IMG/VR virus record: IMGVR_UViG_3300031519_000019
Location: 6,921 to 70,920 of that record
DNA from: a virus
Taxonomy: Duplodnaviria; Caudoviricetes
DNA length: 64,000 bases
Reading direction: 5' to 3' (one strand)
The position numbers and the translations under genes were made by a program. Shown here one piece after another: positions 21,201 to 60,052 of the stretch; positions within the stretch are counted from its first letter, which is position 1; every line of letters begins with the position of its first letter. The notes below the pieces were generated by a model. That model was not told the DNA's origin. It did not search any database and was given only the letters and a program-made list of their open reading frames with translations.

Positions 21201-21667
21201 CAGTGTATGAAACTAGCACTAATGTATATGATCAAAATATTAGTAAGACAATTCCATATAAAGATAGAACACTTGTACAGAATTGGGAAAAAGATGAAGT
21301 TAACGGATTAACAAATACATTTACAACAAAATTTAAAATAGGCTCAGTGGACGAAATTGAGGTATTTACTGCTGGAACACGTATGCGTAAAACACAAATA
21401 TCAACATTTAATCCTACAATTGCACTTGATAGTCCTGAAGGTGACGAAGTTGTTGCTAGTGAATTTACGCTAATTAATACATTCGACGAATTTGGTGAAA
21501 TAGAAAGTAGTAGTGTGGTGCTAAATAGCCCTCCTTTAGCTGAAACTAAAGTAACAGTTGTGAAAAAAGTGGGCCAAGTATGGACAGAAGAAGGTACAAC
21601 GTTGGGTGACACAAGAAATTCAATTGCACAATTCTTACGTGCAGGAACATCTGCGCTACCTGAATAA
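6293..21667 (+). CDS. Giant (5124 aa) baseplate/virion structural protein, gp7-position, with propeller-like, CBM-like and GxGY repeats
   Basis: Single uninterrupted ORF coupled to the gp6 stop (TAATG). Contains FG(E/Y)S(I)xxS propeller-like repeats, W/F-x4-Y-x2-G/N-x2-VxY repeats and GSGYTxAPTV repeats typical of large myovirus virion proteins. Confidence 0.75.
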
Positions 21668-40932: not shown

Positions 40933-42209
40933 ATTTAGATACCGTTTGTCCTGCTGTATGGGATCACCTATGCGTAAACACAATGGGGAAAAATCGTTTA
41001 TGCTGTAATGCTGTTACACAAGACAAAGATAAATTTATTGGCAATCTTGACCAGCACTGGAATGTTCTTAGAGACAATGTTAAAAAAGAAATGTTGGCTG
41101 GCAATCGTCCAGACATTTGCAAAAGTTGTTGGAAAAAAGAAGAATCTGGCATATCTAGTTTACGAGATCAATTTATTGAAAATTATAAAAATCAAGGTAT
41201 CTGGGATAAATTTGTAGATGACATTCCTACAACAAAAAAATATCCAGTAGAACTTGACCTTAAATTAGGAAATTACTGTAATCTAAGTTGTAGGATGTGC
41301 AGTAGCTATAGTAGCAGCGGCGTTGCAAATGAATTCCAAAAAATCCTTAAAGATACTGGTGTTGATTTAGGACTAGACGAGTACGAAAAAAACTTTGTTC
41401 AAAACAAATGGTATCTCCAAGAAGAGTTTGTAGATTCGATAAAAGACATGATTGCAAACGGTCTGCGCCATTTAAAATTTACAGGCGGCGAACCATTAAT
41501 GGTTCCCAGCGTAAAAAAACTAATTGACTACTGTGTTGATAATGATTATGCTAAGAACATTGATTTAATCATAATAACAAATGTAACACTAATAGACGAC
41601 GAATGGATTAAACGATTTAAGGCATTTAAGTTTGTAAACATTATTTGTAGTATAGACGGCATAGGCAATACTTTCGAATATATAAGACATCCTGCAAATT
41701 GGAATGATGTAAACAGTAAGTTACAAAAACTATCTGATGTACAGACTGCGCAGTTGGTAACTTCGATTACGTTTACATTACAAATATATAATATTCTTGA
41801 AATTAGGAATATGGTGGAACTATCTAAAAAATATAACTTTCATATAACTTCTATTCCTTTAGATACGCCTGAATATCTAGATGTACGTAACGCTCCACAG
41901 ACTCTTAAAAATGCTGCATTAGAAATGATAGCAGATTTAGAAAATGAATTAAATCCAAAGATTACGCCTCGAACAGAAGATAACTGTCTATGTTTTCATG
42001 ATTTAAAACCTAAAGACGTTCCGTGTGCTAGAACGTGCCCAATTGTACTTACTAATGTATTAGTCAAATTTGTTAATAATGTTAAAAAGAAAATTAATCA
42101 ACCCCAACAGCAAGACAATAGTAAGAAATTTTTAGAAATAACTAAATTAAAAGACACGTATAAAAAACAAAGTTTTGATACAATGGAGATAGCAAAGTAC
42201 TATGATTAA
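40929..42209 (+). CDS. Radical SAM protein with N-terminal twitch cluster and extra C-terminal Cys-rich insert
   Basis: VCPAVW...RLCC...CKSC; DLKLGNYCNLSCRMC; FTGGEPL. Confidence 0.9.
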   Translation: MNLDTVCPAVWDHLCVNTMGKNRLCCNAVTQDKDKFIGNLDQHWNVLRDNVKKEMLAGNRPDICKSCWKKEESGISSLRDQFIENYKNQGIWDKFVDDIPTTKKYPVELDLKLGNYCNLSCRMCSSYSSSGVANEFQKILKDTGVDLGLDEYEKNFVQNKWYLQEEFVDSIKDMIANGLRHLKFTGGEPLMVPSVKKLIDYCVDNDYAKNIDLIIITNVTLIDDEWIKRFKAFKFVNIICSIDGIGNTFEYIRHPANWNDVNSKLQKLSDVQTAQLVTSITFTLQIYNILEIRNMVELSKKYNFHITSIPLDTPEYLDVRNAPQTLKNAALEMIADLENELNPKITPRTEDNCLCFHDLKPKDVPCARTCPIVLTNVLVKFVNNVKKKINQPQQQDNSKKFLEITKLKDTYKKQSFDTMEIAKYYD

Positions 42210-43356
42210 ATGTTTTGCAACTACTAATAGTGTAATGATAGATCCGTTAGGACAAGTTAAACCTTGTTGCAAATATGATGGTTTCTTTGGTCATATCGAC
42301 GAATACGATAGTATTGATGATATACTTAAGAGTAAACACTACATTAGATTACAAATAGCTCACTCTGTTGGAAATTTTACAAGAGGATGTTGGAGATGTA
42401 AAGAATCAGAGGATCGAGGATATAAAAGTCGTCGACAATATTATGACGATCAATATACCGATACTGACTTCTTATTAGACATTAGTCCGGGAACATATTG
42501 TAATTTAAAATGTCGCATGTGTAATCCTTGTAATAGTACTAAATGGTTTTCAGATTGGGACGCATTAAGAAAAATGGGAATAATAAATTCAAAACCTACT
42601 AGCTCTTTAAATGTGTACAACATGCCAGAAGATGATGTTGACAAAATTATTAATTTTTTAGATACCACGTCTTATGAGATTGCAATAGAGTTTAAAGGCG
42701 GTGAGCCGTTAATGAATCCTAAAACTCAAACGCTGTTTGAAAAAATGGCAAATTGCAAAAGCAGTAATCGAATATCTATAATGTTAATTACTAATGGAAC
42801 ATATAAGGTTGATTGGTTGGCAAATATTGCTGATAAATTTAAACGCCTTCATATCGGTATTAGTGCAGATGGTATTGGTAAGGTATACGAGTATATACGA
42901 GGTGATAAAACCTATAATTGGAAAAGATTCTTAGAATCAATCGAATCTTATAAAAGTATTCCTAATACTACCTTATCATTTAATTATGTAGTGCAAAATA
43001 CAAACATTCATCAGATGGCTGACTTCGCAGATGCAGTAGCACCTTATAGTGTGGGGTGGATATTATTAAATAACCCAATGTGCTTATCTACTACTGTTAT
43101 TCCTCTTAGTGCAAGAGCTGATATTATAAAAAAACTACAGCCGCTGCTCAATACAACTCCGAAAGATCGAGAACAATTTAATACCTTAATGAGTATAATG
43201 AACGAATTAACTAGCAATGTTGATATGGATAAGGAAATGTATAAAAAGTTTATTGAATATTCGGCAGCATTGGATAAACTTCGCAATCAAAGTTTATTAG
43301 ATGTAGCTCCTCACTTAATTACAGAAGAAGGCAAAAGAATATATGACTCAATCTAA
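42202..43356 (+). CDS. Radical SAM protein with N-terminal twitch cluster
   Basis: KC...GQVKPCC...CWRC; GTYCNLKCRMC; FKGGEPL. Confidence 0.9.
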   Translation: MIKCFATTNSVMIDPLGQVKPCCKYDGFFGHIDEYDSIDDILKSKHYIRLQIAHSVGNFTRGCWRCKESEDRGYKSRRQYYDDQYTDTDFLLDISPGTYCNLKCRMCNPCNSTKWFSDWDALRKMGIINSKPTSSLNVYNMPEDDVDKIINFLDTTSYEIAIEFKGGEPLMNPKTQTLFEKMANCKSSNRISIMLITNGTYKVDWLANIADKFKRLHIGISADGIGKVYEYIRGDKTYNWKRFLESIESYKSIPNTTLSFNYVVQNTNIHQMADFADAVAPYSVGWILLNNPMCLSTTVIPLSARADIIKKLQPLLNTTPKDREQFNTLMSIMNELTSNVDMDKEMYKKFIEYSAALDKLRNQSLLDVAPHLITEEGKRIYDSI

Positions 43357-44497
43357 AACATTCTGTGCATTACCGTGGATGCATCTTGCTACTAATGCAA
43401 GCGGCAATCTTCGAGTGTGCTGTAACAGTACTCCGGGTAAAAACTTTATTACTAAAAAAGACGGCACCCCTTACAAGCTACAAAAAGATGACTTACAAGA
43501 AGCATGGAATAGTGAAGTATATACTACTATTCGTAAGCAGTTACTTGCTGGCGAACGTCCTGAAATGTGTACACGTTGTTTTAGAGAAGAAGATGTTGGC
43601 ATTAAAAGTGCTAGACAAAGTTGGAACAACAAGTGGGAAGAAGATAAAGAGTATACAATAGATGCACCTTTTGACATTAAATATGTTGACTTACGGTTAG
43701 GCAACTTGTGTAATTTAAAATGTCGTATGTGCAATCCGTATGCAAGTAACATGTGGGTTAAAGAATGGAACCTAGTTGAAACTGCACTAAGTGAAAGTGA
43801 ATACAAGCGTCTTAGTAGTATGAACTGGCCTGAGCATGAAAAGACTTGGGAAAACTTGTTTAGTATTGCACACACAGTAGATGAAATATACCTAACAGGC
43901 GGCGAACCTACAGTTATTAAAGAACAACAAAAATTGTTAGATTACTTTATCGACAACGGTACTGCAAAAGACATACGTTTAAAATACAATACTAATTTAG
44001 TTAAAGTACAACCTTGGCTACTTGAACGCTGGACTCATTTTAAACGAGTGCAACTTAATTGCTCAATAGATGCTACTGGTGCATTAGATCATTATATTCG
44101 ACATCCGAGTAAATGGGATACGATTGTAAAGAATTTTGAAACTATTAGACAGCTTCCTAATGCAGGAATTGAAATACACTGCACAGTACAAATGTACAAT
44201 ATATTAAGACTGCCTGAACTAATAGACTGGGCTACACCTTATGGACATAGAATATATTTTAACATTCTTAATCATCCTGAAGAATTAAATATTAGAGTGT
44301 TGCCCAAACATCTAAAAGATCAAGCTGCAAAACAATTACAACCGTATTTGCATTTAGATAAGGTGCAAGGTATTATTGATTATATGTATGCCGAAGATTG
44401 GAACAATAAATATAGTAAGTTTATGAAATACACAATTGCACTAGATGCAAGCAGAGGTGAAAACTTATTTGATCTAATACCGGAGTTTAATCAATGA
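43343..44497 (+). CDS. Radical SAM protein with N-terminal twitch cluster
   Basis: FCALPW...GNLRVCC...CTRC; DLRLGNLCNLKCRMC; LTGGEPT. Confidence 0.9.
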   Translation: MTQSKTFCALPWMHLATNASGNLRVCCNSTPGKNFITKKDGTPYKLQKDDLQEAWNSEVYTTIRKQLLAGERPEMCTRCFREEDVGIKSARQSWNNKWEEDKEYTIDAPFDIKYVDLRLGNLCNLKCRMCNPYASNMWVKEWNLVETALSESEYKRLSSMNWPEHEKTWENLFSIAHTVDEIYLTGGEPTVIKEQQKLLDYFIDNGTAKDIRLKYNTNLVKVQPWLLERWTHFKRVQLNCSIDATGALDHYIRHPSKWDTIVKNFETIRQLPNAGIEIHCTVQMYNILRLPELIDWATPYGHRIYFNILNHPEELNIRVLPKHLKDQAAKQLQPYLHLDKVQGIIDYMYAEDWNNKYSKFMKYTIALDASRGENLFDLIPEFNQ

Positions 44498-45129
44498 AAA
44501 TAGGAGTATTTGGCGATAGTTATGCAGAGCATACGGCAGCTAATCCTGCACATTTAGAATGGTGGCAGTATGTACAACAATGTCCTAATATAGAAATAGA
44601 CACCTACGGATTTGGCGGATCTAGCTTATACTATACGTGGAAACAATTTCATATTCACCAACACAAGTATGACAAAGTTATTGTTTGTTTTACTATGCCT
44701 AACAGACTTTGGTTGCCACATTTGCCAAAACATTGGCAATCGGAACATGTTCATTCTCTAGATGCTTTAAAACACAGAACTTTTAAAAGTACGTCTGCTG
44801 CTAGAATTATGAAGAATGCATTAACATCATATTACAAGTATATTGTTAATTTAGAAGAACAACAAGATATTTGGAAGCTTCAAATTGCAGATATAAAGCG
44901 CACAAGACCCGATGGACTATATCTTGCTTGTTTTCCAGATGACGAAATTATTTCAGATTATATGCCGCTTTTTGAAATATCTAAACTAGATGGCGATTTA
45001 ATGGGTACTCAGCGAGATACTCGAGCAAATCATTTTAACGATAAAAACTGTAGGATATTTGCAAAAAAAATAGAAACTTGGATACACACAAATCAGTTTA
45101 GTTTAGATATAGAAGATTTTAGTAAATGA
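44494..45129 (+). CDS. SGNH/GDSL-like hydrolase or acyltransferase
   Basis: MKIGVFGDSY (block I), YGFGGSS (block II), C-terminal NH. Confidence 0.65.
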   Translation: MKIGVFGDSYAEHTAANPAHLEWWQYVQQCPNIEIDTYGFGGSSLYYTWKQFHIHQHKYDKVIVCFTMPNRLWLPHLPKHWQSEHVHSLDALKHRTFKSTSAARIMKNALTSYYKYIVNLEEQQDIWKLQIADIKRTRPDGLYLACFPDDEIISDYMPLFEISKLDGDLMGTQRDTRANHFNDKNCRIFAKKIETWIHTNQFSLDIEDFSK

Positions 45130-45782
45130 AAATTGGATTTTTTGGATGCAGTCATGTCGGCGGATTTTATCCAACTTATTATAATTTAGCTGAAGAAGTT
45201 GCAGCAAAGTGTCCTCAACACGAAATACATGATTACAGCTTCGGCGGCCATAGTCAACAAATGATAATTTACTTATTTGAAAAATTTAAACAAGAACACG
45301 ACTTTAATATAGTAAAAATAACTAGTCCGGGAAGACTTAGTTTTTTTAATAACTTTGACTTTGCTAAAAACAGAAAATTTAAGACTTCTAATTTTAATAC
45401 ATGGTCTAACCTTAGTTACTACGGAAAGAATGTTGTTAGGATGAATTATTCAAGTTGCCCTCTTTCCGTAGCAGAGCCTAAATATAGTTTAAAATCTATA
45501 AAAAAATTACATAAAATGTATTATTCTCATATAAGTTACGAACTAGCAAATATTGAGTCGTTGGCTATTACAAAATATCTTCAATCATCGGCAGATTTTG
45601 TGTATGCACACCGGGCATTTCAAAAAGAAGCAATGCCTAATGATATTTTATGTACTGAAAAGTTTTTGTTACCTAACTATCAATCTTATGTAATAGATGA
45701 AGGGTATCATCTAGGTCTAGAAGGCACAAAAGCAGAAGCCGAATGGCTTATAAATAATATAAAGGAATTAAAACATGCCTAA
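45126..45782 (+). CDS. SGNH/GDSL-like protein
   Basis: MKIGFFGCSH, YSFGGHS, TSPGR, DEGYHLG; paralog of 46859. Confidence 0.6.
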   Translation: MKIGFFGCSHVGGFYPTYYNLAEEVAAKCPQHEIHDYSFGGHSQQMIIYLFEKFKQEHDFNIVKITSPGRLSFFNNFDFAKNRKFKTSNFNTWSNLSYYGKNVVRMNYSSCPLSVAEPKYSLKSIKKLHKMYYSHISYELANIESLAITKYLQSSADFVYAHRAFQKEAMPNDILCTEKFLLPNYQSYVIDEGYHLGLEGTKAEAEWLINNIKELKHA

Positions 45783-46848
45783 GTGTGCTTTACTTGATAC
45801 ACATGTTTGTGCAGTACTGCCAGGAAATTACAAGCCTTGCTGTCAGTTTGAACAATACCGCACAACTAATGTTAAACTTTCAGAAATGTCTCATAAGGAA
45901 TATACACAAACTCCTGAGTTTCAAAAAATTAAAAGCGACATGGAAACAGGCTGGCACAAAGGATGCGAAAAGTGTAGACTCGACGAAACACAGAATAGTA
46001 TTCAAAGCCTTAGGCAAATATCAAACGAAAACTTTAAAAGTGATCTAGGCATTCAATTTGTTGAAATAAGTCTGAGCAACAATTGCAATTTATCTTGTAA
46101 AATGTGCAACACAGACAGTAGTAGTAAGTGGAGTAATTTATATAAAACCAATCCTGATCTACAACATTATTTTAGGGATAACAATCAAGAAATATCAATA
46201 GAACGAGTGTTCAACGGCTTAGACCTTTCAAATTTAAAAGTTATAAAATATTTAGGTGGTGAACCTTTTATTACACCGCAGACCAAAGAGTTATTTAATT
46301 TTTTAGAAGACCAAAATATTATAAACAATGTTCAACTTACTACAAATACTAACTGCACTTTTTTCCCTCACAAATGGATAAAACAATTATTAAAGTTTAA
46401 AAGTGTTCGTATAGGACTAAGTCTTGATGGATTTAAAAAGTCTTGCGAATATTCGAGAACTGGTAGTAATTGGGATGAATTAACTAAAAATGTAAAATAC
46501 TGGGCAATGATGCAAAAACGTCATCCTAAATTTAATATTCGATTCAGTACAACGGTAAACGCACTAACAGTGCATGATTACACTAATTTTATTAATTATG
46601 CAAACGAAGTGGGATTAGGATATACACCTTATGTAGTACATGCTCCGGCATATTTAAAACTAGAAGCATTACCTCCTGAGTATGTTGACAGCATAAAAGA
46701 TGAAAATAACAAGCAATTTTTAGACAATGTTGTGTATGATCCAGAACTTTTTGAAAAGTTTAAAAAGTTTATTGAAATAACTGACAGCGCACAAAATATA
46801 AATATTCGAGACTATCTTCCAGAGTTAGCACAATACATTGACAAATAG
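45775..46848 (+). CDS. Radical SAM protein with N-terminal twitch cluster
   Basis: KC...YKPCC...CEKC; EISLSNNCNLSCKMC; YLGGEPF. Confidence 0.9.
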   Translation: MPKCALLDTHVCAVLPGNYKPCCQFEQYRTTNVKLSEMSHKEYTQTPEFQKIKSDMETGWHKGCEKCRLDETQNSIQSLRQISNENFKSDLGIQFVEISLSNNCNLSCKMCNTDSSSKWSNLYKTNPDLQHYFRDNNQEISIERVFNGLDLSNLKVIKYLGGEPFITPQTKELFNFLEDQNIINNVQLTTNTNCTFFPHKWIKQLLKFKSVRIGLSLDGFKKSCEYSRTGSNWDELTKNVKYWAMMQKRHPKFNIRFSTTVNALTVHDYTNFINYANEVGLGYTPYVVHAPAYLKLEALPPEYVDSIKDENNKQFLDNVVYDPELFEKFKKFIEITDSAQNINIRDYLPELAQYIDK

Positions 46849-46858
46849 GATTTTATAA

Positions 46859-47479
46859 ATGAAAATAGGTGTATACGGTTGTAGTTGGTGCTCAGGAGTT
46901 TACCCAGATTTTATTGGATGGCCAAAGAATTTAGCTAAAATGCTGCCAGAACATGAAATAAATGATTACAGTCTAGGCGGACTTAGTATAGAAGCAATAC
47001 TCTATTGGTTTGAACAATTTAAAGATCATAATGATATAAACATTGTAAAATTAACAACTCCTTATAGACTAACAATTATATCCGAAGATGCTGAAGTTAA
47101 ACGAACTCAAGTAACTGAAAATTATTCTACATGGGATAAAAATTTTACAGAGACAATGATTAGAATTCATCCTAACTCACCGCCTCAAGGTGCTGGTAAA
47201 TTACATAGGATTTACTACAAGTACTATAATCAAACAGTTGGTTTGATAACAGCGCATGCAATTGCAGAATACTTAAAAAATCATAAAGATGTACATATGA
47301 TATTTAAACATCAATCATATGATAAACACCATCCAGACATTAGTATAGCTACACAAAATTTTATACCAAGTTTTAAATCTTATATTATAGATGATGGACA
47401 ACATTTGTCGTATGAAGGCGCCCAAATTGAAGCAGAATACATAAAAAATTATCTAATTAATAATCAACTAATAACTTGA
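46859..47479 (+). CDS. SGNH/GDSL-like protein
   Basis: MKIGVYGCSW, YSLGGLS, TTPYR, DDGQHLS (DxxH). Confidence 0.6.
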   Translation: MKIGVYGCSWCSGVYPDFIGWPKNLAKMLPEHEINDYSLGGLSIEAILYWFEQFKDHNDINIVKLTTPYRLTIISEDAEVKRTQVTENYSTWDKNFTETMIRIHPNSPPQGAGKLHRIYYKYYNQTVGLITAHAIAEYLKNHKDVHMIFKHQSYDKHHPDISIATQNFIPSFKSYIIDDGQHLSYEGAQIEAEYIKNYLINNQLIT

Positions 47480-47503
47480 CAGATACATATAAGGTGTTAT
47501 AAT
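47476..47503 (+). promoter_or_regulatory. sigma70-type promoter TTGACA-N16-TATAAT with extended -10 (TGn), leaderless
   Basis: TTGACA 47476-47481, TG at 47495-47496, TATAAT 47498-47503, ATG only 5 nt downstream. Confidence 0.8.
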
Positions 47504-47508
47504 AAAGT

Positions 47509-48624
47509 ATGAATGAAGACTTAAAGTGGAGCAACTACGATTTTACAAAGATTCCTTTTGATGACATTGTCAGTGTTGGACAAAGGACACTTCTATATCG
47601 CGACTTATTTACTGTGTCTTGGCTGCTTGGCCGCTTTTGCAACTATAAGTGCAGCTATTGTTGGCCATATGCCCGTAGTGATAGAAAAGACCATAGGCCG
47701 ACTGAATTGTGTCTTCATACAATCGACGAAATAAAGAGGCAGGCACGTGATAACGGGTTTAATAGCTTTCATTTTAGTTTATCTGGTGGTGAGCCTACTT
47801 TTCACCCTGGTTACTTGGACATTCTCAAACATCTTGCTAATGATGTTGGTAATACTAATTATACATCTGTTCACATGACATCAAACTGCTCACGCAACAT
47901 GGCGTGGTTTGAAGAGTATGTAGAAGCAGTTAAGCCATTCCACCGTGCCAGTATTACAGCAAGTTTGCACACAGAGCATCTTAACACTACTGAGAAGATG
48001 CAGGACTTTGCTGACAAGCTAATTTTCTGTCAAGAGCATGATGTACAAGTTACGATCAATATGGTTATGGTACCCGACTGGTTTGAACGTGATTGGGAGA
48101 ACGCATTGTTCTTTCACGAGCAGGGCATAAACGTAACGCTAAAGCCTCAAAGCGACCCTACAGCTAGTCGAGTAGTAGATGGGTATACAGCAGACAACCT
48201 AAAGCGTTTACACAACGGTATGCCGCAACGTGCGTACACAGAAAGCAAGCGCAAGTGGGCGGACCGTCCCAAACCAACATTTCAAGTACCTAAAGACATC
48301 ATGGGTAAGAATGATGCTAGTGTACCTTGGCACATGCAAGTAGAGTTTAAAGATTCGACTGGTAAAAAATGGTATATGGATCAAGCTGAACGGTTTAATG
48401 CTTTTAATTTTAATAATTTTAAAGGCTGGAGTTGTAATGCCGGATATTCTGGAATTATTATTCGAGAGCCTGACGGTAGTGTTAAGCGATCCTATTCCTG
48501 TCATGATGTGCCGCTTGGAAATATAGAAACAGGGTTTAAACTCTTTGATGCTCCTATGCCTTGTATAACAGACAGTTGTGTAAGTAGCGCAGACAGTAAA
48601 ATTCCAAAGAGAAAAAATGCGTAG
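47509..48624 (+). CDS. Radical SAM protein with C-terminal twitch-like Cys cluster
   Basis: VSWLLGRFCNYKCSYC; SLSGGEPTFHP; C-terminal WSCNAG...PDGSVKRSYSC...PMPCITDSC. Confidence 0.88.
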   Translation: MNEDLKWSNYDFTKIPFDDIVSVGQRTLLYRDLFTVSWLLGRFCNYKCSYCWPYARSDRKDHRPTELCLHTIDEIKRQARDNGFNSFHFSLSGGEPTFHPGYLDILKHLANDVGNTNYTSVHMTSNCSRNMAWFEEYVEAVKPFHRASITASLHTEHLNTTEKMQDFADKLIFCQEHDVQVTINMVMVPDWFERDWENALFFHEQGINVTLKPQSDPTASRVVDGYTADNLKRLHNGMPQRAYTESKRKWADRPKPTFQVPKDIMGKNDASVPWHMQVEFKDSTGKKWYMDQAERFNAFNFNNFKGWSCNAGYSGIIIREPDGSVKRSYSCHDVPLGNIETGFKLFDAPMPCITDSCVSSADSKIPKRKNA

Positions 48625-49309
48625 TAATGAGCAAATAGCAGCTATTAAAAAAACACATTCTCCTCCAGTTCAAATACTTAACACACTGGATACTAACAAG
48701 ATTGAGTTTTTATTAAATTACTATCACAGTCAAGACAAAATAGAAAAGAACACCGGTCCAAAAGTAGTTTACGTACAAGAAGGAACTGGTGTAATTGACG
48801 ACATACTAATTCCTTTGCGTAAACAATTTGGTAATTTTAAAGTTCGGGCTTGTCATTTTTTTGATGTAGATAATCCTCACATACTGCACATAGATGATAG
48901 TTACGATTATCCCACCACCTACAAAGCATTTACTATTCCGTTATGGGTAGAAAACGGTGACTGTAATAAAATTAAACTAGTTATGTTTGATCAGTACTAC
49001 TATGGCGGTCCTGTAAAGTTTTTTAAAGATGAAGTATTTGATAAAGAAGTTATTTTTTACAATAAGCATCTTTATGAATATACTGATGTTGAAAATTTAG
49101 TTGATACAGGTATTCCTAAAAATGTAAAAACTAAAATGCTTGGACATTTAAAATCTAAATGGCTTGAAGGACTTAGTGTACATTGTTGTTTTCCTTGGAC
49201 TATTGGATCGATAATAGCATTTGATAGTTTAAGAATACACTGTTCTAGCAACTTCAAGAACGCTGGAATAAAAAGAAAAATTGGACTAAGTATTTTTACG
49301 GAGATTTAA
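48617..49309 (+). CDS. Fe(II)/2OG-type oxygenase-like protein
   Basis: ILHIDD...AFTIPL...IIAFDSLRIHCS...KIGLSIF; same architecture as 40054. Confidence 0.55.
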   Translation: MRSNEQIAAIKKTHSPPVQILNTLDTNKIEFLLNYYHSQDKIEKNTGPKVVYVQEGTGVIDDILIPLRKQFGNFKVRACHFFDVDNPHILHIDDSYDYPTTYKAFTIPLWVENGDCNKIKLVMFDQYYYGGPVKFFKDEVFDKEVIFYNKHLYEYTDVENLVDTGIPKNVKTKMLGHLKSKWLEGLSVHCCFPWTIGSIIAFDSLRIHCSSNFKNAGIKRKIGLSIFTEI

Positions 49310-49310
49310 A

Positions 49311-50045
49311 ATGGATAACAGTCATATCGTTACTGCTGAAGAACAAGCAAAACTAAAAGTAAACTATACTCAATTATACAATGATGGGGTTATTACAAAC
49401 CCTAAAATTATAGATATTGCCTGTGAATTGCAGCTAGATGCAATCGGCGATTTTGTTCCACTAAAGTTTAAAGTTGATCTAAGCGAATTTAGGAAAGAGA
49501 TTAAACAGTATGACGATATGTGGATACCGTATTTGCATAGAGAAGGATTGCTAAATGATAGACAAGGTTTAAATTTAGTAGGACTTCCTGGTGACACACC
49601 TACAGATAGTTTAAGCATGCCTGAAGCAATGAGACGAACAGGTCGCGCATTGTCTGAACTTGACTTTGATACTCCTACACAATTGTACAAAGACCTTCCT
49701 AGTTTACAGCATATTGTGGACTATTTTCCTAAGTTAGGCCGTTGTAGTTTAGTTAAACTAAACACAGGAGCATGGTTTCCGAAACATCGAGACGGTATAT
49801 TACTGCAAAGAAGAACATTTAGAATAGTTGTATTTTTAACTAACACAAATCATACAGCATATGAATGGGAACACAACCATCGTATTAGACAGATAGACGA
49901 AGGTCGTGCATATTACATTGATACACGTAAAACACATCGTACACATAGTTTTACACAAGATAGTATACATTTGGTAATGAATATTCCAAAAACTTACGAC
50001 AATGTATTACGGATATTAGATGTGTTAGACGCTGGCGAAAGTTAA
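49311..50045 (+). CDS. Aspartyl/asparaginyl beta-hydroxylase-family Fe(II)/2OG oxygenase
   Basis: GRCSLVKLNTGAWFPKHRD...FRIVV...GRAYYIDTRKTH...SIHLVMNI. Confidence 0.7.
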   Translation: MDNSHIVTAEEQAKLKVNYTQLYNDGVITNPKIIDIACELQLDAIGDFVPLKFKVDLSEFRKEIKQYDDMWIPYLHREGLLNDRQGLNLVGLPGDTPTDSLSMPEAMRRTGRALSELDFDTPTQLYKDLPSLQHIVDYFPKLGRCSLVKLNTGAWFPKHRDGILLQRRTFRIVVFLTNTNHTAYEWEHNHRIRQIDEGRAYYIDTRKTHRTHSFTQDSIHLVMNIPKTYDNVLRILDVLDAGES

Positions 50046-50046
50046 T

Positions 50047-50631
50047 ATGCACTTAGAAACATTTAATCATCAAACAATTACAGATAAGCAAAATAGCGAC
50101 CTAATGAAACTTTGTGATTTTGCAAGCACGTTAGACGATCCTGCTGCAAAAAATTACGAAACTTCTAATTGGTCTTCTAAAAACAACACACTATTATATG
50201 TATTTTATACTAAAAATCGATTTGACATATTTAATATGTTATATGACGGCAATGAACCAATAGCAATGGCAGGTGCATATGTATATAATGGTATTCCTAT
50301 TATTGGAGTAAGAACATTTACGCATCCTAATTACAGAGGTGGCGGATATTGGAGTCAAGCACGTTATATACTCCCTGCTCAAATTAAATACTATGACGAA
50401 TTAGGTTATAAAAAAGTCTGGTTAACGTTTAATCAATATAATCATAAACTTGTAAACTTCTTGAAGCGGATGAGTGAAGGCAAAGCAAGTCATTTTGGCG
50501 CAGGAAAGAACAGCCCTAAAAATTTATATAAAGACTTAAAATGGTATGACGAATTAGTATCTATACAATATACTGATCAGATAGTAGCCGAGTTAGACAT
50601 TGAATCATACAATGCTACACACTCTTCATAA
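50047..50631 (+). CDS. GNAT-like acyltransferase
   Basis: PIAMAGA...RTFTHPNYRGGGY (acyl-CoA-binding motif A-like). Confidence 0.6.
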   Translation: MHLETFNHQTITDKQNSDLMKLCDFASTLDDPAAKNYETSNWSSKNNTLLYVFYTKNRFDIFNMLYDGNEPIAMAGAYVYNGIPIIGVRTFTHPNYRGGGYWSQARYILPAQIKYYDELGYKKVWLTFNQYNHKLVNFLKRMSEGKASHFGAGKNSPKNLYKDLKWYDELVSIQYTDQIVAELDIESYNATHSS

Positions 50632-51185
50632 TTTTTACCAATTAGTGTGATATATGCAAATAAAGTTTTACCTTGTCCTGATGCTGCATGCGGTACGCCA
50701 GTATTTAATAAAACAGGTTGATATAGTTTGTGTTCTATAAACTCGATCCAGGTTTCACAAGATGTATATTTAGATAGAGAACTATCATTTACATGACTGT
50801 TTCTAAAACAATCAATTGAATCCTGCTCATCTAAGTCGGGCCAAAATGTCATCCTATTTTTTAGATTTCCTTCTATAGGAAATGCAAGATTGCAATACCG
50901 TTGATGACTTTTTGACTTTCTATAATTAGTGTCTGTATGTATTTGACTTATATTTTCAGACTGTATTATAGAAAAGAAAAAATTGTCAAGTTTAAAATAT
51001 TTGTTTACGACAGTGTCTATTAGTTCTTTAGTTTTGCCTTCAAACGATCTCATTGGCAGTCGTAGTCGATCATAGATATACTCTCTGCCATTAAGTCTAT
51101 GATCATCAGAATTATAAAGATTTATCTCTGAAACTTCTTTAGCAAAGTTTGAGAATTGAGGATAAATTTTATAATACTTGTTCAT
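50577..51185 (-). CDS. Fe(II)/2OG-type oxygenase
   Basis: SQIHTD...CNLAFPI...PVLLNTGVPHAA. Confidence 0.6.
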   Translation of the reverse strand: MNKYYKIYPQFSNFAKEVSEINLYNSDDHRLNGREYIYDRLRLPMRSFEGKTKELIDTVVNKYFKLDNFFFSIIQSENISQIHTDTNYRKSKSHQRYCNLAFPIEGNLKNRMTFWPDLDEQDSIDCFRNSHVNDSSLSKYTSCETWIEFIEHKLYQPVLLNTGVPHAASGQGKTLFAYITLIGKNYEECVALYDSMSNSATI

Positions 51186-51189
51186 ACTT

Positions 51190-51195
51190 TATTTA
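51190..51195 (-). promoter_or_regulatory. Late-like box TAAATA, 4 nt before ATG 51185
   Basis: Minus strand reads TTAAATA-AAGT-ATG. Confidence 0.5.
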
Positions 51196-51227
51196 ACCGA
51201 GAGTGCCTACTGCAAATGATGATACCG

Positions 51228-51241
51228 ATAAATATATTTAT
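51228..51241. promoter_or_regulatory. Perfect 14-bp palindrome ATAAATATATTTAT giving an ATAAATA box on each strand
   Basis: Self-complementary; sits between divergent genes; the + box is 5 nt before ATG 51240. Confidence 0.55.
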
Positions 51242-51992
51242 GAAAGACATATTTAGAGCAAATACATTATATTTTCCATACATTCAAGCAATTGCAACAG
51301 CAATGATTGCGTATATGGTATTTTTTGCCCCATCTGCAGAATGGTGGTTACTTAGTTTGGCTGTATATTTCTTAACAGGTTGTTTAGGAATTACAATTAC
51401 GTTCCATAGATACTTAACGCACAACAGTTTTAAGTTTCGTTATAAATGGATGGAGTATTTGTTTACTTTTTTTGGAGCAATCGGTGGCACTGGAAGCAGT
51501 ATTGGATGGGTTGCAGTACACAATCAACATCATAAACACAGCGATAAAGACGGTGATCCGCACGGTCCTCACTTAGGATTATGGAATGTACTAATACCCA
51601 AATATGATTTTGAAATGAACAAATGGGCAGTGCGTAGATTAATTACAGACAAGTTCCATTTGGTGTTGCACAACTATTATTACTTGATATTATTAATATG
51701 GTGTGGAGCATTGTTTGTATTAGGCGGAGCCAATGTGCTAATATTTGGCGGAATTATTCCTATGGGAATACAAATATGGGCCAGTGTATTAAGCAATTAC
51801 GGTAACCATATGTGGGGTTACCGTAACTATGCAACAAAAGAAGACAGTCGCAACACATGGTGGTTAGCAGCAATTACATGGGGCGAAGGTTGGCACAACA
51901 ATCATCATGCTAAACCTGGACAGTGGAACTTTCAACACAAGTGGTGGGAACTAGACCCAAGTGCTTGGGTAATTAAACTGGTTAAAATTTAA
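51240..51992 (+). CDS. Membrane acyl-lipid/acyl-CoA (delta-9-type) fatty acid desaturase
   Basis: His boxes HRYLTH, HNQHH and GEGWHNNHH, then DPS; hydrophobic helices. Start moved from 51156 (which overlaps the divergent gene) to ATG 51240. Confidence 0.88.
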   Translation: MKDIFRANTLYFPYIQAIATAMIAYMVFFAPSAEWWLLSLAVYFLTGCLGITITFHRYLTHNSFKFRYKWMEYLFTFFGAIGGTGSSIGWVAVHNQHHKHSDKDGDPHGPHLGLWNVLIPKYDFEMNKWAVRRLITDKFHLVLHNYYYLILLIWCGALFVLGGANVLIFGGIIPMGIQIWASVLSNYGNHMWGYRNYATKEDSRNTWWLAAITWGEGWHNNHHAKPGQWNFQHKWWELDPSAWVIKLVKI

Positions 51993-51993
51993 T

Positions 51994-53460
51994 ATGTATC
52001 ATGCAGTAATATTTACAGGGTTAAACTACGGCGAAATCTCTTATTATCGGCCGATTGGCGCATACCGTATTAGAACAGAATTAGAAAGTCGAGGATATAA
52101 TGTAAAAGTTATTGAACACTTTCATCATTTAACAAATGAACATATTGAACAAGCATTAGACAAATATGTTAGTAGTAAAACACTATGGGTTGGATTTAGT
52201 ACTACTTTTATTAATACATCAACGCTTCTTTTAGATAGATCAGATTTTTTTACCAAACTAAAGCAAAAATATAATGTGCCTTTTGTAATTGGCGGATCAA
52301 AGGCAATAGTAGATACTCTTCCTTGGTCTGACGTTTTAATTACTGGTTACGCTGACGATGCTGTAATAGCTATAACCGATCATTTTGCTGGCAAAGGATC
52401 TGCGCCTAAATGGGTTGATTACAAAGGTAAAAAACTTATCAATAGTAATCATTCTTATGATAGAAAAGATTTATCAAACATTGGCGTTATATGGAAGCCA
52501 GAAGATCATATAACATCATATGAAACTATGCCAATGGAAATTGCCCGTGGGTGTATTTTTAATTGTGCTTTTTGTAATTTTCCATTAAACAACAAAAAGA
52601 AATTTGACTATATTAGAGTCAAAGAAGACATGACCAACGAGTTCCTACGTAATTATGAGGAATTTGGCACAACTAGTTATAGCTTTATGGATGACACATA
52701 CAATGATAGTATGTTAAAACTAGAACTTATGCACGAAGTAATAAACGGATTACCGTTTAAGATCAAATTTGACACATACATTAAACCTGAATTACTAGTA
52801 CGCTGGCCTGAACAAATCGATTTGTTAGTTGAATCAGGTCTCCGAGGAGCAAGTCTAGGTCTTGAAAGCTTAAATAATCAATCTCGACAAGCTGTGCAAA
52901 AAGGTGCCGACGGCGAAAAAGTATTAGATGCAATATCAAATTTAAAATCTAAAAGCAATGGCTCTGTAAAAATACAAACTAATTTAATTGTAGGATTACC
53001 TCACGAAACTTCTGAAAGTTTATGGCAAACCCACAGTACTGTGGTTAATAATCCAGATATTGATTGGTGGAACTGGTATGCATTACAAATCCATTCAAAA
53101 GATCGTCATGAGTATCATTCTCCAATTGATAGAGATCCAGCAAAATACGGATACGAAATAATTGAAGAACCAAAACTAATAAAAAATAATATGGTTGACG
53201 ATAATCAATGGATAGTACCGTGGAGAAACGAACATATGGATTCTCAAGGAGCCCAAGACATGGCAAACTTATTACGCCGTCTTGATAAACCTTTGATTAA
53301 AATTGCTGGATGGTCATGCGGAGCATATGCTAGTCTTGGTGTAGACATTGATAAACATTACGAAGAGCATGACGGCATAATAACCTTGTTACCATTGGAC
53401 GATCTTAAGAATAAAAAAATTCAAATAATAGACAATTATATTCAAAAAGAAATAACATAA
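51994..53460 (+). CDS. Radical SAM protein with B12-binding-like N-terminal domain (class B methylase architecture)
   Basis: PIGAYRIRTELESRGYNVKVIE...VGFST...FVIGG...; EIARGCIFNCAFC; FMDDTY; SLGLESLN; NLIVGLPHET. Confidence 0.82.
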   Translation: MYHAVIFTGLNYGEISYYRPIGAYRIRTELESRGYNVKVIEHFHHLTNEHIEQALDKYVSSKTLWVGFSTTFINTSTLLLDRSDFFTKLKQKYNVPFVIGGSKAIVDTLPWSDVLITGYADDAVIAITDHFAGKGSAPKWVDYKGKKLINSNHSYDRKDLSNIGVIWKPEDHITSYETMPMEIARGCIFNCAFCNFPLNNKKKFDYIRVKEDMTNEFLRNYEEFGTTSYSFMDDTYNDSMLKLELMHEVINGLPFKIKFDTYIKPELLVRWPEQIDLLVESGLRGASLGLESLNNQSRQAVQKGADGEKVLDAISNLKSKSNGSVKIQTNLIVGLPHETSESLWQTHSTVVNNPDIDWWNWYALQIHSKDRHEYHSPIDRDPAKYGYEIIEEPKLIKNNMVDDNQWIVPWRNEHMDSQGAQDMANLLRRLDKPLIKIAGWSCGAYASLGVDIDKHYEEHDGIITLLPLDDLKNKKIQIIDNYIQKEIT

Positions 53461-55433: not shown

Positions 55434-56300
55434 ATGTTACCGCTAACCTATAGTGATTATTTTACTACTTCAGGACACGGAGATAATTGGAAAGTGCATC
55501 TTAAATCATGTACTCAAGAGCCTAACTCGTTTCACAACGAGTGTATTCGTGCTGCTAAAATACTTTATGAATCTGCATCTAGTCCAATAGTGTTGTTGTT
55601 CAGCGGCGGCTTAGATAGTGAGTATATGATTAACATTTTTAAAAAAGCTGGCATAGATTTTAAAGTTGCAATTATAAGTTATGGTGCTTATAATACACAC
55701 GACACCGCATATGCCTTTGAATATTGTAACGCACACAATTTATCACCGATAATAATTGATGTTGATATAGATAAATTTATAACTAGCGGTAAAATAATCG
55801 AAATAGCAACAACAGCCAAATGTTGTGCTTATCAAATACCTAGCATTATGTATGGTATTAGTAAAATAGACGGCACTGTTATAATGGCTAATGGCGAACC
55901 GTATATTAAAAACTTTGACGGAGACTGGCGCTGGGAAGAAACTGAAAGAGTTAATAGCTATATGAACTGGTTTAGAGATCAGCGATTAGAAGGTACTCCT
56001 GATTTTTTAAGATACACTCCAGAAATGACAGCTGGGTTTTTAAAGGAACCACGGGTTATACAATTAGTTAATAACCAATTACCTGGAAAACTCAGCACTC
56101 GTACTAGCAAATATATGATATACAGTAAAGATTTTACATTTAAAGAACGTCCAAAATTTACAGGATGGGAACAAATAGAAAAAACTTCGCTAATGAATAA
56201 CGAAGTTTTTTTAGAAATTAATAATTTAAAGAAACATTACAACGGAGTGTTTGAATTACAATATGCTGATTTATGCCAGCATTTGTCTGTCAAATGTTAA
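55434..56300 (+). CDS. PP-loop (adenine nucleotide alpha-hydrolase) enzyme, asparagine-synthetase-like catalytic domain
   Basis: IVLLFSGGLDSE (SGGxDS PP-loop), later VIMANGEP; no glutaminase domain. Confidence 0.7.
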   Translation: MLPLTYSDYFTTSGHGDNWKVHLKSCTQEPNSFHNECIRAAKILYESASSPIVLLFSGGLDSEYMINIFKKAGIDFKVAIISYGAYNTHDTAYAFEYCNAHNLSPIIIDVDIDKFITSGKIIEIATTAKCCAYQIPSIMYGISKIDGTVIMANGEPYIKNFDGDWRWEETERVNSYMNWFRDQRLEGTPDFLRYTPEMTAGFLKEPRVIQLVNNQLPGKLSTRTSKYMIYSKDFTFKERPKFTGWEQIEKTSLMNNEVFLEINNLKKHYNGVFELQYADLCQHLSVKC

Positions 56301-56642: not shown

Positions 56643-56660
56643 ATCATGTCTCCTTAAAAT

Positions 56661-56681: not shown

Positions 56682-57254
56682 ATGGAAAATTATTTTTTAT
56701 TACCAGACTTAAAATACGATAATGAACGCATTGAATTAGAAAATTATGTTAATTCATATACTAATTGGTCGTTTCTAGGTGTTGGTCGATTTAAAATCTA
56801 TATAGGATTTCCTGAAAGACATGCTATAAATCCTATAGCTTCTAAGTTTAAAAATCCAAAGACTCTATTTAAAAAAATAGAAATGAATCTAGTTAAGGCA
56901 AACGGCATTGTTGCTCCCCATACAGACTGTGATAGATTTGCTACTTTGAATATACCTATTATGGGAGATTTTAAAAATAGCACCTTAGATTTTTATACTA
57001 AGAATACAGACGGAGAAGAAGTACCTGGACTAGATGGAAATATCAATGCTGTGTATAAGCCTAAGCACTATGTACAAGAAGATCTAATAGATCAGATATC
57101 TTATACGGTTCCGGTATGCTTTAATACCCAAACTGTTCACGGTGTTACAAATTGTACTAAACAAGATAGATATATTTTAACTTTAAGTTTTAAAGAAGAG
57201 TTTACTTACAATAAAATAAAAGATATGTACGAATACGGAGATTTATTAGTGTAA
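56682..57254 (+). CDS. Fe(II)/2OG-type oxygenase
   Basis: VAPHTD...ATLNIPI...VCFNTQTVHGV...RYILTLSF. Confidence 0.7.
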   Translation: MENYFLLPDLKYDNERIELENYVNSYTNWSFLGVGRFKIYIGFPERHAINPIASKFKNPKTLFKKIEMNLVKANGIVAPHTDCDRFATLNIPIMGDFKNSTLDFYTKNTDGEEVPGLDGNINAVYKPKHYVQEDLIDQISYTVPVCFNTQTVHGVTNCTKQDRYILTLSFKEEFTYNKIKDMYEYGDLLV

Positions 57255-57958
57255 TGTTTTCAGAAAAACTATTTAAAAACGTATTTGATCCAACTGCAAT
57301 CAAACAAGTTGCAGAAAATTTAAAAACAATTGACAATAAAGAAACATTTATATACGAACAAGACCAAACCACAGTAAGAAGTATATTTGCTCCTCATTGG
57401 TTTGATAATACGTTAAAAGAGTTTGTCAATAACAATCCTATGATAGATATAGTTAAAGATATCTTAGAAACAGATGTTTATACTCATCAAGTGCATTTTA
57501 ATTATAAATCTGCAAACATAGGAGGCGAGTATGCATGGCATAGTGATTACACTTTTTGGCAAGCACACGACGGTATGCCGGATCCTAATGCATTAAGTTT
57601 ATTATTCTTGTTAGACGATATGACATTAGAAAACGGCCCCCTAGAAGTATTACCGGGCAGTGAAAATTTTCTTGTTGAAAAGAAGACTAAAACTTGGACT
57701 ATTAAGCATGATGCTAACGAAAAAGACGGTATGATAACCGAAAATATGGTGTCTATGACTGGATTACAGCGTCATACAGTACTGGGCGAAGCAGGGGATG
57801 TGTATGTGATGCATGCTAATATGTGGCACACTAGCGGGCGTAATACAAGCTCTAAAGACAGGAATGTGTTGTTTATATGCTACAATTCTGTTGATAATAA
57901 GACTACAAAAACAGATAGACCCAATTACATAACACTAAGAAACTTTAGTCCAGTTTAG
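57254..57958 (+). CDS. PhyH-family Fe(II)/2OG dioxygenase, ectoine-hydroxylase (EctD)-like
   Basis: RSIFAPH, HQVHFNYK, AWHSDYTFWQAHDGMP, NGPLEVLPGS, HANMWHTS..N.S..DRNVLFICYNSVDN. Confidence 0.85.
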   Translation: MFSEKLFKNVFDPTAIKQVAENLKTIDNKETFIYEQDQTTVRSIFAPHWFDNTLKEFVNNNPMIDIVKDILETDVYTHQVHFNYKSANIGGEYAWHSDYTFWQAHDGMPDPNALSLLFLLDDMTLENGPLEVLPGSENFLVEKKTKTWTIKHDANEKDGMITENMVSMTGLQRHTVLGEAGDVYVMHANMWHTSGRNTSSKDRNVLFICYNSVDNKTTKTDRPNYITLRNFSPV

Positions 57959-59090
57959 TTGTTATTATATTGCTTGCTATTGTTTGCCATTTATCATGGG
58001 CTTCGGTTAGTGTAGCACCTGATGTAACGCAAAATCCTTTAGACACCATCAGCATATCCATGCGTGTCAAATAAGACTGTTGTGCAGGCAATGTCAATTC
58101 ATCAGCAAGTGTAGCATCGCCTCTAAACTCTACTTTATGTTTGCCCTTTGCTATATCAAAATACTTATAAACTACGCACTTATCTAGTTGTACTTTTGTT
58201 TTATCTTTGTATAGTAAACTATCTACAATAAGTTTGTTATAGTTGATGCCTGCACTGTGTTTAATTAACACTTGCGCACTTACACTTAGTCTAGGACTAA
58301 AATCTACCAAATAAAATTGTCCATCTCTACTACTTATAAAGTCAGCCATCCATGCACAGTTAGTTAGTTCTAAGCCGTTACTTAACTTTTCTATTTGTTC
58401 TTTTATAGGATCTGTATTTTTGTAATAACTGTTAAGTAAGAATCCAGTTTCTGCTCTGTATGGTAGTTCACTTGATTCGATAGTATATACACAATCAAAT
58501 AATATATCACCATCTACAATTCTGCCAGCACAACTAATAGTAGGACCGTCTATAAAATCTTGGAAGATATAATGCTTGCCTAGGTCGTTATACTGTATAT
58601 CTTCTCCAGAAGCAAAAAAGAAATATTCACTGTAGTCATTTAATACTTTAACTCCAATACTTCCTGTACCGTTTACTGGTTTAGCAATAATAGGATAAGT
58701 TACTTGTTTAATATCGTCATACGTGTTTGGAACTGTTACTCCTACACTTTTTGCAAAGGCAGTATACGCTTGCTTACTAGATAATATGTTGCATTGTTTA
58801 TCAGTGAATCCTAACTTTTTATACAAGTAAGGAAACATCATATCGTTGTATAAAGGAAAAATTAAATCTATATTTTTTTCTTCTATATAGGCTAAGATTA
58901 CTTTTGCTAAATCGCCTCTTTCTCTTTCAAATATATCAACATTATCTATTAAATTATCGTGTAACGGAATGACAGTATTTTTTGCGAACTCGTTACCTAA
59001 TGCTCTCCAAGAATATAGATTATGTTCTTTTAGTTCTTCTACAGCATATCTTAGATTGCTAGTTTGATAATTTAATAAAATATTAACCAT
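57945..59090 (-). CDS. ATP-grasp ligase (L-amino-acid ligase/carboxylate-amine ligase-like)
   Basis: YPIIAKPVNGTGSIGV, YIFQDFIDGP, FYLVDFSPR. Confidence 0.8.
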   Translation of the reverse strand: MVNILLNYQTSNLRYAVEELKEHNLYSWRALGNEFAKNTVIPLHDNLIDNVDIFERERGDLAKVILAYIEEKNIDLIFPLYNDMMFPYLYKKLGFTDKQCNILSSKQAYTAFAKSVGVTVPNTYDDIKQVTYPIIAKPVNGTGSIGVKVLNDYSEYFFFASGEDIQYNDLGKHYIFQDFIDGPTISCAGRIVDGDILFDCVYTIESSELPYRAETGFLLNSYYKNTDPIKEQIEKLSNGLELTNCAWMADFISSRDGQFYLVDFSPRLSVSAQVLIKHSAGINYNKLIVDSLLYKDKTKVQLDKCVVYKYFDIAKGKHKVEFRGDATLADELTLPAQQSYLTRMDMLMVSKGFCVTSGATLTEAHDKWQTIASNIITTKLD

Positions 59091-59677
59091 TACGTATATC
59101 TAATATTATCATCTTTTAAATTGTTTATATCAAAACCGTGTTGCCTAAAAGGTACAGCAAATCGCAATACTGCATCTTTTTCTAACGGACCTTTTAATAT
59201 AAAGTCGTATAACGGAATGTTAGTTACAGTGCCTGCTGGAACAACAACAATGTCCATTATGTTATATTTTGCAAATGCATCTGAATAGTGTGTAGCAAAC
59301 CCCTCACCTGGCCAAGTAATATGTTTTTTAAGACGCCCTGCGTGTACCCACCACCAGCCCCATACGCCTATTTTTTCGTGAGTTTTAATAACAAAATCTA
59401 ATAGATCAAAAGTAACTTGTTTGCCTACTTTAATTCCTATTTTTCTAGATAGTTGTGTGTCTAAATACATCCAACCTACACCTGTTACTGGAGTTTTATT
59501 AGATGCTAATACTTGTATAAATTTGCCATCGTTATCAACTGCTGCAAAAATTCTACGATTTTCAGAGATAAAAGAAATATTATTCCACGAGCTATCTAAC
59601 TTTCGAGCAGAAAGTTGTTCAATAATAAATTCATCAAATTGTTGCTTATGCGATTGATCGAGTTCAATTATTTGCAT
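59090..59677 (-). CDS. Hypothetical protein, possibly GNAT fold
   Basis: MQIIELDQSH...RRIFAAVDNDGKFI pattern typical of GNAT N-termini; no clear CoA motif; overlap-coupled to panD and the ATP-grasp gene. Confidence 0.4.
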   Translation of the reverse strand: MQIIELDQSHKQQFDEFIIEQLSARKLDSSWNNISFISENRRIFAAVDNDGKFIQVLASNKTPVTGVGWMYLDTQLSRKIGIKVGKQVTFDLLDFVIKTHEKIGVWGWWWVHAGRLKKHITWPGEGFATHYSDAFAKYNIMDIVVVPAGTVTNIPLYDFILKGPLEKDAVLRFAVPFRQHGFDINNLKDDNIRYT

Positions 59678-60018
59678 GGGTAACCTAGTATATCCTTAAT
59701 TTCGTTGTCTTTGTTACAAAATATAACTTTTGCTCCGCCAAACGATTCTGTAGCATGATATGTAATTACAACACATTTATCACCAATTTCTCCTAGGCGT
59801 GCTCCTCCACCGTTTAATTCAAACGATCCTTTTGGCCCAGGTACTGCATACGTAGTCCATCTAGTACCTGTGTTAAGGTTTACTACATCAAGTTTTTGGT
59901 AAGGTTCGATGCCGCTAACTTCTAGTAAGTTAGAGCAGATTGTAACACTACCGTGATAGTCAATTGACTTGGCAGTGACATTTATATTATGAAGTTTTGC
60001 GTGTATATATTCTTTCAT
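59668..60018 (-). CDS. panD: Aspartate 1-decarboxylase (pyruvoyl-dependent)
   Basis: AKLH (catalytic Lys), YHG/SVT (Gly-Ser autocleavage site), RWTTY (catalytic Tyr), LNGGGAR, GDKCVVITY; 116 aa. Confidence 0.9.
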   Translation of the reverse strand: MKEYIHAKLHNINVTAKSIDYHGSVTICSNLLEVSGIEPYQKLDVVNLNTGTRWTTYAVPGPKGSFELNGGGARLGEIGDKCVVITYHATESFGGAKVIFCNKDNEIKDILGYPCK

Positions 60019-60024
60019 AGTATT

Positions 60025-60052
60025 ATTATACTACAAAAGAATAAATTGTCAA
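60025..60052 (-). promoter_or_regulatory. sigma70-type promoter TTGACA-N16-TATAAT for the panD operon, leaderless
   Basis: Minus strand reads TTGACA-atttattcttttgtag-TATAAT-aatact-ATG(60018). Confidence 0.8.

Follow-up and report, generated by a model that had tools for sequence, protein, structure and literature searches.

What would a phage do with an aspartate decarboxylase when no other gene of pantothenate synthesis is seen beside it? To our knowledge, PanD, the enzyme that makes beta-alanine, has so far been a pantothenate-pathway enzyme. The question is raised by a 64-kilobase (kb) stretch of viral DNA, referred to below as the window, which forms part of the 70.9-kb IMG/VR record IMGVR_UViG_3300031519_000019 (CheckV completeness 19%) and comes from an uncultivated marine jumbo phage (myovirus). 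In this window, panD heads an operon that further encodes a GNAT-fold protein and an ATP-grasp ligase, and for which the original prediction, made from the letters, had proposed the production of a beta-alanyl conjugate and not coenzyme A (CoA) synthesis. The answer offered here, in which we place about even confidence, is that the operon makes a small beta-alanyl amide compound, and that it is read by the host RNA polymerase, early and as a leaderless transcript. The promoter and genes concerned are the following, in coordinates of the window.

60025..60052, minus strand: sigma70-type promoter TTGACA-N16-TATAAT (12/12 match; present in 4/5 aligned relatives)
59668..60018, minus strand: PanD, pyruvoyl-dependent aspartate 1-decarboxylase, 116 residues (Pfam PF02261, 6e-28)
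59090..59677, minus strand: GNAT-fold protein, 195 residues, lineage-specific and fast-evolving family (AlphaFold2 model and structural matches)
57945..59090, minus strand: ATP-grasp ligase of the L-amino-acid-ligase type, 381 residues (ATP-grasp_3, 4.6e-7; Foldseek match 3VOT)

Operon organization and promoter

The promoter and the overlap coupling of the three open reading frames (ORFs), both read from the letters earlier, were found as described. PanD shares 10 nucleotides (nt) with the 195-residue ORF, which in turn overlaps the ATP-grasp gene by 1 nt (TAATG). The promoter at 60052..60025 is the sole 12/12 site within 7 kb (55-62 kb); the next best site reaches 10/12, and weaker promoter-like sites show no excess in this region (36 versus 31.6 expected from shuffles). 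It sits in a 38-nt gap after the upstream Mtd_N fibre gene, which directly precedes the operon in every relative examined. The end of the -10 box and the panD ATG are separated by 6 nt, with an in-frame TAA two codons upstream of the ATG, and because this leaves no space for a Shine-Dalgarno sequence, the operon mRNA would be leaderless or nearly so. The layout TTGACA...TATAAT-N6-ATG is kept in four of the five aligned relatives. Across the window, the T4-type late-promoter octamer TATAAATA is strongly depleted, with 2 copies versus 17 expected from shuffles.

The operon has a GC content like that of its surroundings. Purifying selection acts on all three genes, the ratio of nonsynonymous to synonymous substitution rates (dN/dS) being 0.09 for PanD, 0.25-0.49 for the middle ORF, and 0.25-0.30 for the ATP-grasp gene.

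PanD and the pantothenate genes

The phage PanD matches the Pfam Asp_decarbox profile with 97.5 bits (cut-off 25), over profile positions 4-114 of 115. The catalytic Lys, Gly-Ser, and Tyr positions recognized earlier are indeed conserved: K8, H10, Y21, G23-S24, R53, T56, Y57, and N69 (K9, H11, Y22, G24-S25, R54, T57, Y58, and N72 in E. coli) are invariant across seven phage PanDs, and alignment with solved PanDs shows the Gly-Ser cleavage site, Lys, His, Arg, Thr-Tyr, and Asn to be intact. Judged by its residues, the enzyme is catalytically complete and is predicted to be an active decarboxylase.

The window PanD is 51% identical to gp87 of Rhodococcus phage Jace, whereas its identity to the cellular-type PanDs of the phage collection is at most 36%. 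A search for homologues recovered 128 PanD clusters at E ≤ 1e-10, every one of metagenomic origin, and the 120 listed are 47-94% identical to the window protein. The clade of the window PanD consists of proteins of 114-118 residues, found in metagenome assemblies only and phage-like in every context examined; pantothenate genes are absent from all of these contexts, in which PanD is accompanied throughout by a carboxyl-activating enzyme and a GNAT-type protein. The alignment to E. coli PanD ends at residue 91 of 126, and the E. coli-type C-terminal tail (residues 118-126) has no alignable counterpart in the phage protein.

The reported absence of panB and panC from the window extends to the full 70.9-kb record (19% complete) and to five relatives of 48-146 kb, all incomplete. 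Sub-threshold PanC matches correspond to 136-residue cytidylyltransferase-like genes adjoining a phosphomannomutase gene.

At L029:403-2626 and L030:328-3085 (from relatives G002 and G005), family B DNA polymerase fragments lie beside a 136-residue cytidylyltransferase-like gene and a phosphomannomutase gene, with a weak match to an intein-splicing domain in L029. These features hint at a polymerase that is split or carries an intein, and at sugar-nucleotide metabolism in the lineage.

The ATP-grasp ligase

The third gene had been called an ATP-grasp enzyme, which agrees with its ATP-grasp_3 match (30.5 bits versus a cut-off of 23.2); on the basis of its model, it can now be placed with the L-amino-acid ligases. 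Sequence searches among solved structures place it nearest to the L-amino-acid ligase BL00235 (3VOT, 9e-6) and to D-Ala-D-Ala ligase. The AlphaFold2 model (predicted local distance difference test, pLDDT, 89) yields full-length Foldseek matches to 3VOT (template modelling, TM, score 0.81), YwfE/BacD (0.76), and RizA (0.67), which together occupy ranks 1-5 and 7, ahead of PurT/PurK and biotin carboxylases. K137, D250, D263, and R267 are invariant across 29 ligase homologues; K137 aligns to the Lys of the 3VOT motif KPVNG, and D263 and R267 to the Glu and Arg of IEVGAR. A pattern scan of 185,579 species genomes confirmed no cellular homologue of the ligase.

The GNAT-fold middle protein

The protein encoded between PanD and the ligase has no Pfam or PHROG match, and a HMMER search of 1.84 billion representatives gave just 10 matches. 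Seven of these, of about the query length, and one 55-residue fragment apparently belong to the same family, while the two remaining ones are long proteins aligned in many short stretches. The ESM Atlas yielded only further unnamed viral clusters.

Nevertheless, the AlphaFold2 model, built from a 16-sequence alignment, reaches a pLDDT of 86 and a predicted TM score (pTM) of 0.84, and on this model the protein is confidently assigned a GNAT fold, in line with the earlier description of the gene at 59090-59677 as GNAT-like. Foldseek returned 230 matches at E ≤ 1e-3, and structural comparison with the PDB gave 229 chains at Z ≥ 8, the listed top matches being all GNAT-type (best Z 13.6, with a root-mean-square deviation, rmsd, of 3.0 across 148 residues). 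The acyl-CoA pyrophosphate-binding motif A (Q/R-x-x-G-x-G/A, after strand 4) is unconserved across the family: its columns read R-K-I-G-I-K in the clade of the window, and unrelated sequence, with no conserved column, in other clades. A sequence link to canonical GNATs was undetected by hhalign against the window's own canonical GNAT (probability 0.04).

Conservation and modularity of the cassette

Profiles of PanD, the GNAT-fold protein, and the ligase were used to search 35 loci, 12 distinct ones of which span the region; all genomes examined are fragments, 7-39% complete. The co-occurrence of the triplet, proposed earlier as a check, is borne out by 11 of these 12 marine jumbo-phage loci, where PanD, the GNAT-fold gene, and the ligase follow each other in one order. 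The twelfth locus (L019) contains PanD and the ligase, with the GNAT-fold gene undetectable. In searches of 50,697 records of isolate phages at DNA and protein level, neither the operon DNA nor the ATP-grasp protein found a match.

Minimal cassettes like that of the window occur in four contigs. In most other loci, two TauD dioxygenases, one or two membrane di-iron desaturase-like enzymes, and a 305-residue radical SAM protein are encoded between PanD and the GNAT-fold gene; the desaturase-like proteins sampled (from sister operons L004 and L019) are transmembrane proteins with three His boxes. In 9 of 11 loci, the GNAT-fold and ligase genes share 1-26 nt; the spacing between PanD and the GNAT-fold gene varies from -10 to +4043 nt. 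Between cassettes, identity amounts to 60-81% for PanD, 37-90% for the ligase, and 17-69% for the GNAT-fold protein. Comparison of the window with L004 reveals a block of 86% DNA identity running from the ligase ATG (59090) to position 56657 (L004:6001-8440), whereas the GNAT-fold gene is unmatched at the DNA level; over PanD and its promoter, identity is 77%. A recombination breakpoint is thus located exactly at the junction of the GNAT-fold and ligase genes. Because of this breakpoint, the inserts, and the contrast in rates, PanD and the ligase can be regarded as conserved ends around an exchangeable middle. No clean correlation was found between GNAT-fold subtype and cassette type (minimal or extended).

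Other optional inserts were observed, namely a weakly sulfotransferase-like 250-residue gene 3' of the ligase, and an unassigned 248-251-residue gene between the GNAT-fold and ligase genes; these inserts lie at L018:5993-6745, L011:8308-9063, and L027:3325-4071.

Proposed function and alternatives

In the pathway proposed here, PanD would process itself at Gly23-Ser24 and then convert L-aspartate into beta-alanine, as its residues suggest. The ligase would activate a carboxylate, most simply that of beta-alanine, as an acyl phosphate and couple it to an amine, a reaction of the kind carried out by carnosine synthase, an ATP-grasp enzyme that joins beta-alanine to an amine; gene linkage points to these substrates. 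The GNAT-fold protein would work with the ligase, either by N-acylating one of the partners or by presenting or choosing the acceptor. PanD and the ligase would be the constant ends of the cassette, with the stretch between them swapped by recombination: it holds the GNAT-fold gene alone in the window, and additional TauD, desaturase-like, and radical SAM genes in sisters. As the middle is exchangeable, different phages would make differently tailored products.

A beta-alanyl amide is favoured over CoA synthesis because of the complete PanD, the ligase type, the GNAT fold of the middle protein, the conservation of the trio, and the lack of panB and panC in the records searched. To this extent the conjugate proposed in the original prediction is supported in part; the part that concerns the ligase is less firm, beta-alanine being its putative substrate by gene linkage with PanD. 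Several further points weigh against a small beta-alanyl amide. The records being fragments, panB and panC could lie elsewhere. In L019, two opposite-strand genes separate PanD from the ligase, so that the cassette is not always one transcript. The membrane desaturase-like genes of most sister operons fit a soluble dipeptide less well than an acceptor that is lipophilic or membrane-bound, and small-molecule enzymes with a fixed substrate do not usually diverge as rapidly as the GNAT-fold protein does (17-69% identity).

These last two points would be accommodated if the beta-alanyl group were instead transferred to a macromolecule or membrane lipid, the hypervariable GNAT-fold protein picking an acceptor of the host or phage (for instance a lipid or glycan of the envelope, a protein, or DNA), an explanation to which we attach a rather low probability. 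The GNAT-fold protein does evolve fastest, with 17-69% identity between cassettes versus 60-81% for PanD, and with a dN/dS of up to 0.49; the sister operons sampled do hold integral-membrane three-His-box di-iron enzymes, and an Mtd_N fibre gene invariably stands before the operon. In the siphovirus cassette, moreover, PanD lies by a ParB_N gene and an ABC-ATPase-GNAT fusion; the fusion is predicted to acylate a DNA base (PMC7824862), and phage ParB homologues activate DNA-base dioxygenases (PMC13229309). However, the nearest structural relatives of the ligase join free amino acids and are not of the RimK/LysX or graspetide type, a candidate acceptor ending in a conserved residue was not found (a 123-residue acidic neighbour is variable), and the cassette of the window has no DNA-binding or ParB partner.

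Two other explanations detach PanD from the ligase. PanD may be a stand-alone auxiliary metabolic gene through which more host beta-alanine reaches pantothenate and CoA synthesis during infection; the GNAT-fold protein and the ATP-grasp enzyme would then act as a pair on other substrates and be merely co-transcribed with it. It is a complete, ordinary-looking enzyme under the strongest constraint of the three, its early sigma70-type expression fits host reprogramming, and 3-4 kb of other genes separate it from the pair in most relatives, as opposite-strand genes do in L019. This explanation is nevertheless improbable, PanD and the ligase occurring together in every complete locus, and the contexts examined containing a carboxyl-activating enzyme and a GNAT-type protein in place of pantothenate genes. 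The middle protein as a PanZ/PanM-like trigger of PanD self-cleavage, with an independent ligase, had been one of the options put forward earlier. The GNAT fold and the 10-nt overlap with PanD in the window would agree with it, and PanZ (4CRY_B) is among the structural matches to the model (Z 12.3, rank 18, rmsd 2.7 over 121 of 127 residues, 18% identity), but about 17 other GNATs score at or above this value. A PanZ-like role is unlikely because the GNAT-fold gene is tied to the ligase gene, which it overlaps in 9 of 11 loci, and not to PanD. PanZ binds residues 118-126 of E. coli PanD, the very tail that the phage PanD lacks in alignment, and PanM is restricted to Gammaproteobacteria, most PanDs cleaving unaided (PMC4537548). 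The acyl-CoA loop, which PanZ requires as an acetyl-CoA sensor, is also unconserved, and the option as a whole can be regarded as highly improbable.

The small beta-alanyl amide thus stays the preferred reading of the operon. Its interest lies in a phage-like PanD clade whose partners, in the contexts examined, are enzymes of amide formation and acyl transfer, and in no case panB or panC. The carriers are widespread marine jumbo phages, which, if this reading is true, would produce, early in infection, a beta-alanyl metabolite or modification of their own, and the swappable middle module suggests diversification under selection. Identifying the product would bring to light a further virus-encoded pathway, to a small molecule or a modification, and could partly explain the large oxygenase and radical SAM island that surrounds the operon. 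No description of the jumbo-phage cassette was found in the literature on phage PanD, ATP-grasp cassettes, and beta-alanine aminolipids.

Neighbouring genes and source phage

Two enzyme genes on the opposite strand flank the 3' side of the operon.

57254..57958, plus strand: PhyH/EctD-like Fe(II)/2-oxoglutarate hydroxylase (PhyH, 3e-27), convergent on the ligase gene with a 14-nt 3' overlap
55434..56300, plus strand: PP-loop ATP pyrophosphatase-like protein, 288 residues, with an SGGLDS motif (weak QueC and argG-related matches)

The PhyH/EctD-like gene keeps the same position in the relatives examined and scores 121 bits against the ectoine hydroxylase model, under the cut-off of 336; the hydroxylase is a possible tailoring enzyme. 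The PP-loop gene is conserved nearby, with SGG-D invariant in 10 orthologues; its one match in a PDB profile search, to NAD synthetase (3P52), is weak. It possibly encodes a second carboxylate-activating enzyme. No neighbour received an equivalog-level name from NCBIfam, all matches being far below cut-off. A gene for a small acidic protein of 123 residues is also conserved near the operon; as a LysW-like carrier or scaffold this protein was rejected, in view of a mean column identity of 34%, a variable C-terminus, and no conserved terminal acceptor.

Elsewhere in the window (38655-53460), a large enzyme island between tail-fibre genes comprises at least eight radical SAM genes, of which three have an N-terminal SPASM match. 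The same island contains a GNAT (50047-50631), a three-His-box desaturase (51156-51992), and then a B12-type radical SAM gene (51994-53460).

The baseplate genes of the window are T4-like. The gp6-like protein is nearest (35% identity) to those of myoviruses of 350-490 kb, such as Salicola SCTP-2, Atu_ph07, and Serratia BF. The relatives all stem from metagenome assemblies, one of them from Tara Oceans. Directly 3' of the baseplate wedge genes, a single ORF of 5124 residues (6293-21667) encodes a giant, presumably structural protein.

Comparison with known systems

The phage PanD shares the catalytic and self-cleavage residues of the bacterial PanDs of pantothenate synthesis (E. coli 1PPY, Campylobacter 3PLX, and Francisella 3OUG), from which it differs by the lack of a visible panB/panC partner and of an E. 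coli-type C-terminal tail. Similarly, the ligase has the full-length three-domain fold of the L-amino-acid ligases (BL00235 of Bacillus licheniformis, 3VOT; YwfE/BacD; RizA), with the ATP-binding Lys and the catalytic Asp and Arg positions kept. Its identity to these enzymes is, however, only about 14%, and it is paired with a GNAT-fold protein in a PanD-headed operon. Ligation of beta-alanine to an amine by this enzyme would parallel carnosine synthase in reaction logic.

Two-step amide pathways that combine a GNAT with an ATP-grasp enzyme are known: Ngg/AsnO leads to N-acetylglutaminylglutamine amide, and NAT8L/RIMKL to N-acetylaspartylglutamate. The phage operon likewise associates a GNAT-type protein with an ATP-grasp ligase, and adds a conserved SGGLDS PP-loop ATPase as a neighbour. 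The likeness is one of pathway logic, with no sequence relationship seen; the acetyl-CoA motif is unconserved in the phage protein, and the phage PP-loop protein has no glutamine amidotransferase domain.

A second PanD-containing cassette is found in siphoviruses, i.e., in Jace and three metagenome contigs, where PanD lies between an ABC/P-loop ATPase-GNAT fusion and a CoA-transferase-III-like gene, again with no pantothenate genes.

L014:3347-6112: siphovirus cassette of Rhodococcus phage Jace, gp85-88
L033:5293-8055: siphovirus cassette
L032:5902-8046: siphovirus cassette
L034:5909-8049: siphovirus cassette

A ParB_N gene is located directly upstream in Jace and L033, and the L033 cassette is near ArdA, Prim-Pol, and terminase genes. 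Acylation of a DNA base was predicted for the ATPase-GNAT fusion by Iyer and colleagues (PMC7824862), and phage ParB homologues were shown to activate DNA-base dioxygenases (PMC13229309). The siphovirus cassette may serve to modify DNA with an acyl group derived from beta-alanine. The jumbo-phage GNAT-fold protein was also compared with the siphovirus ATPase-GNAT, and no homology between the two was detectable.

The two cassettes have in common a homologous PanD (51% identity) and a logic of beta-alanine supply, carboxyl activation, and GNAT-type transfer. They differ by the mode of activation (CoA-transferase-like instead of ATP-grasp), the ParB partner of the siphovirus cassette, the type of phage, and the non-homologous GNAT. 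The jumbo-phage cassette might be a modular beta-alanylation system, parallel to the siphovirus one, in which PanD (supplying beta-alanine) and the ATP-grasp ligase (activating it) act as constant bookends, and the hypervariable GNAT-fold protein, with optional oxygenases, sets a host or phage acceptor such as a membrane lipid, an envelope glycan, a protein, or DNA; this reading is a doubtful one at present. If it is true, the two cassettes would together represent a way of using beta-alanine as a modifying group that is peculiar to phages.

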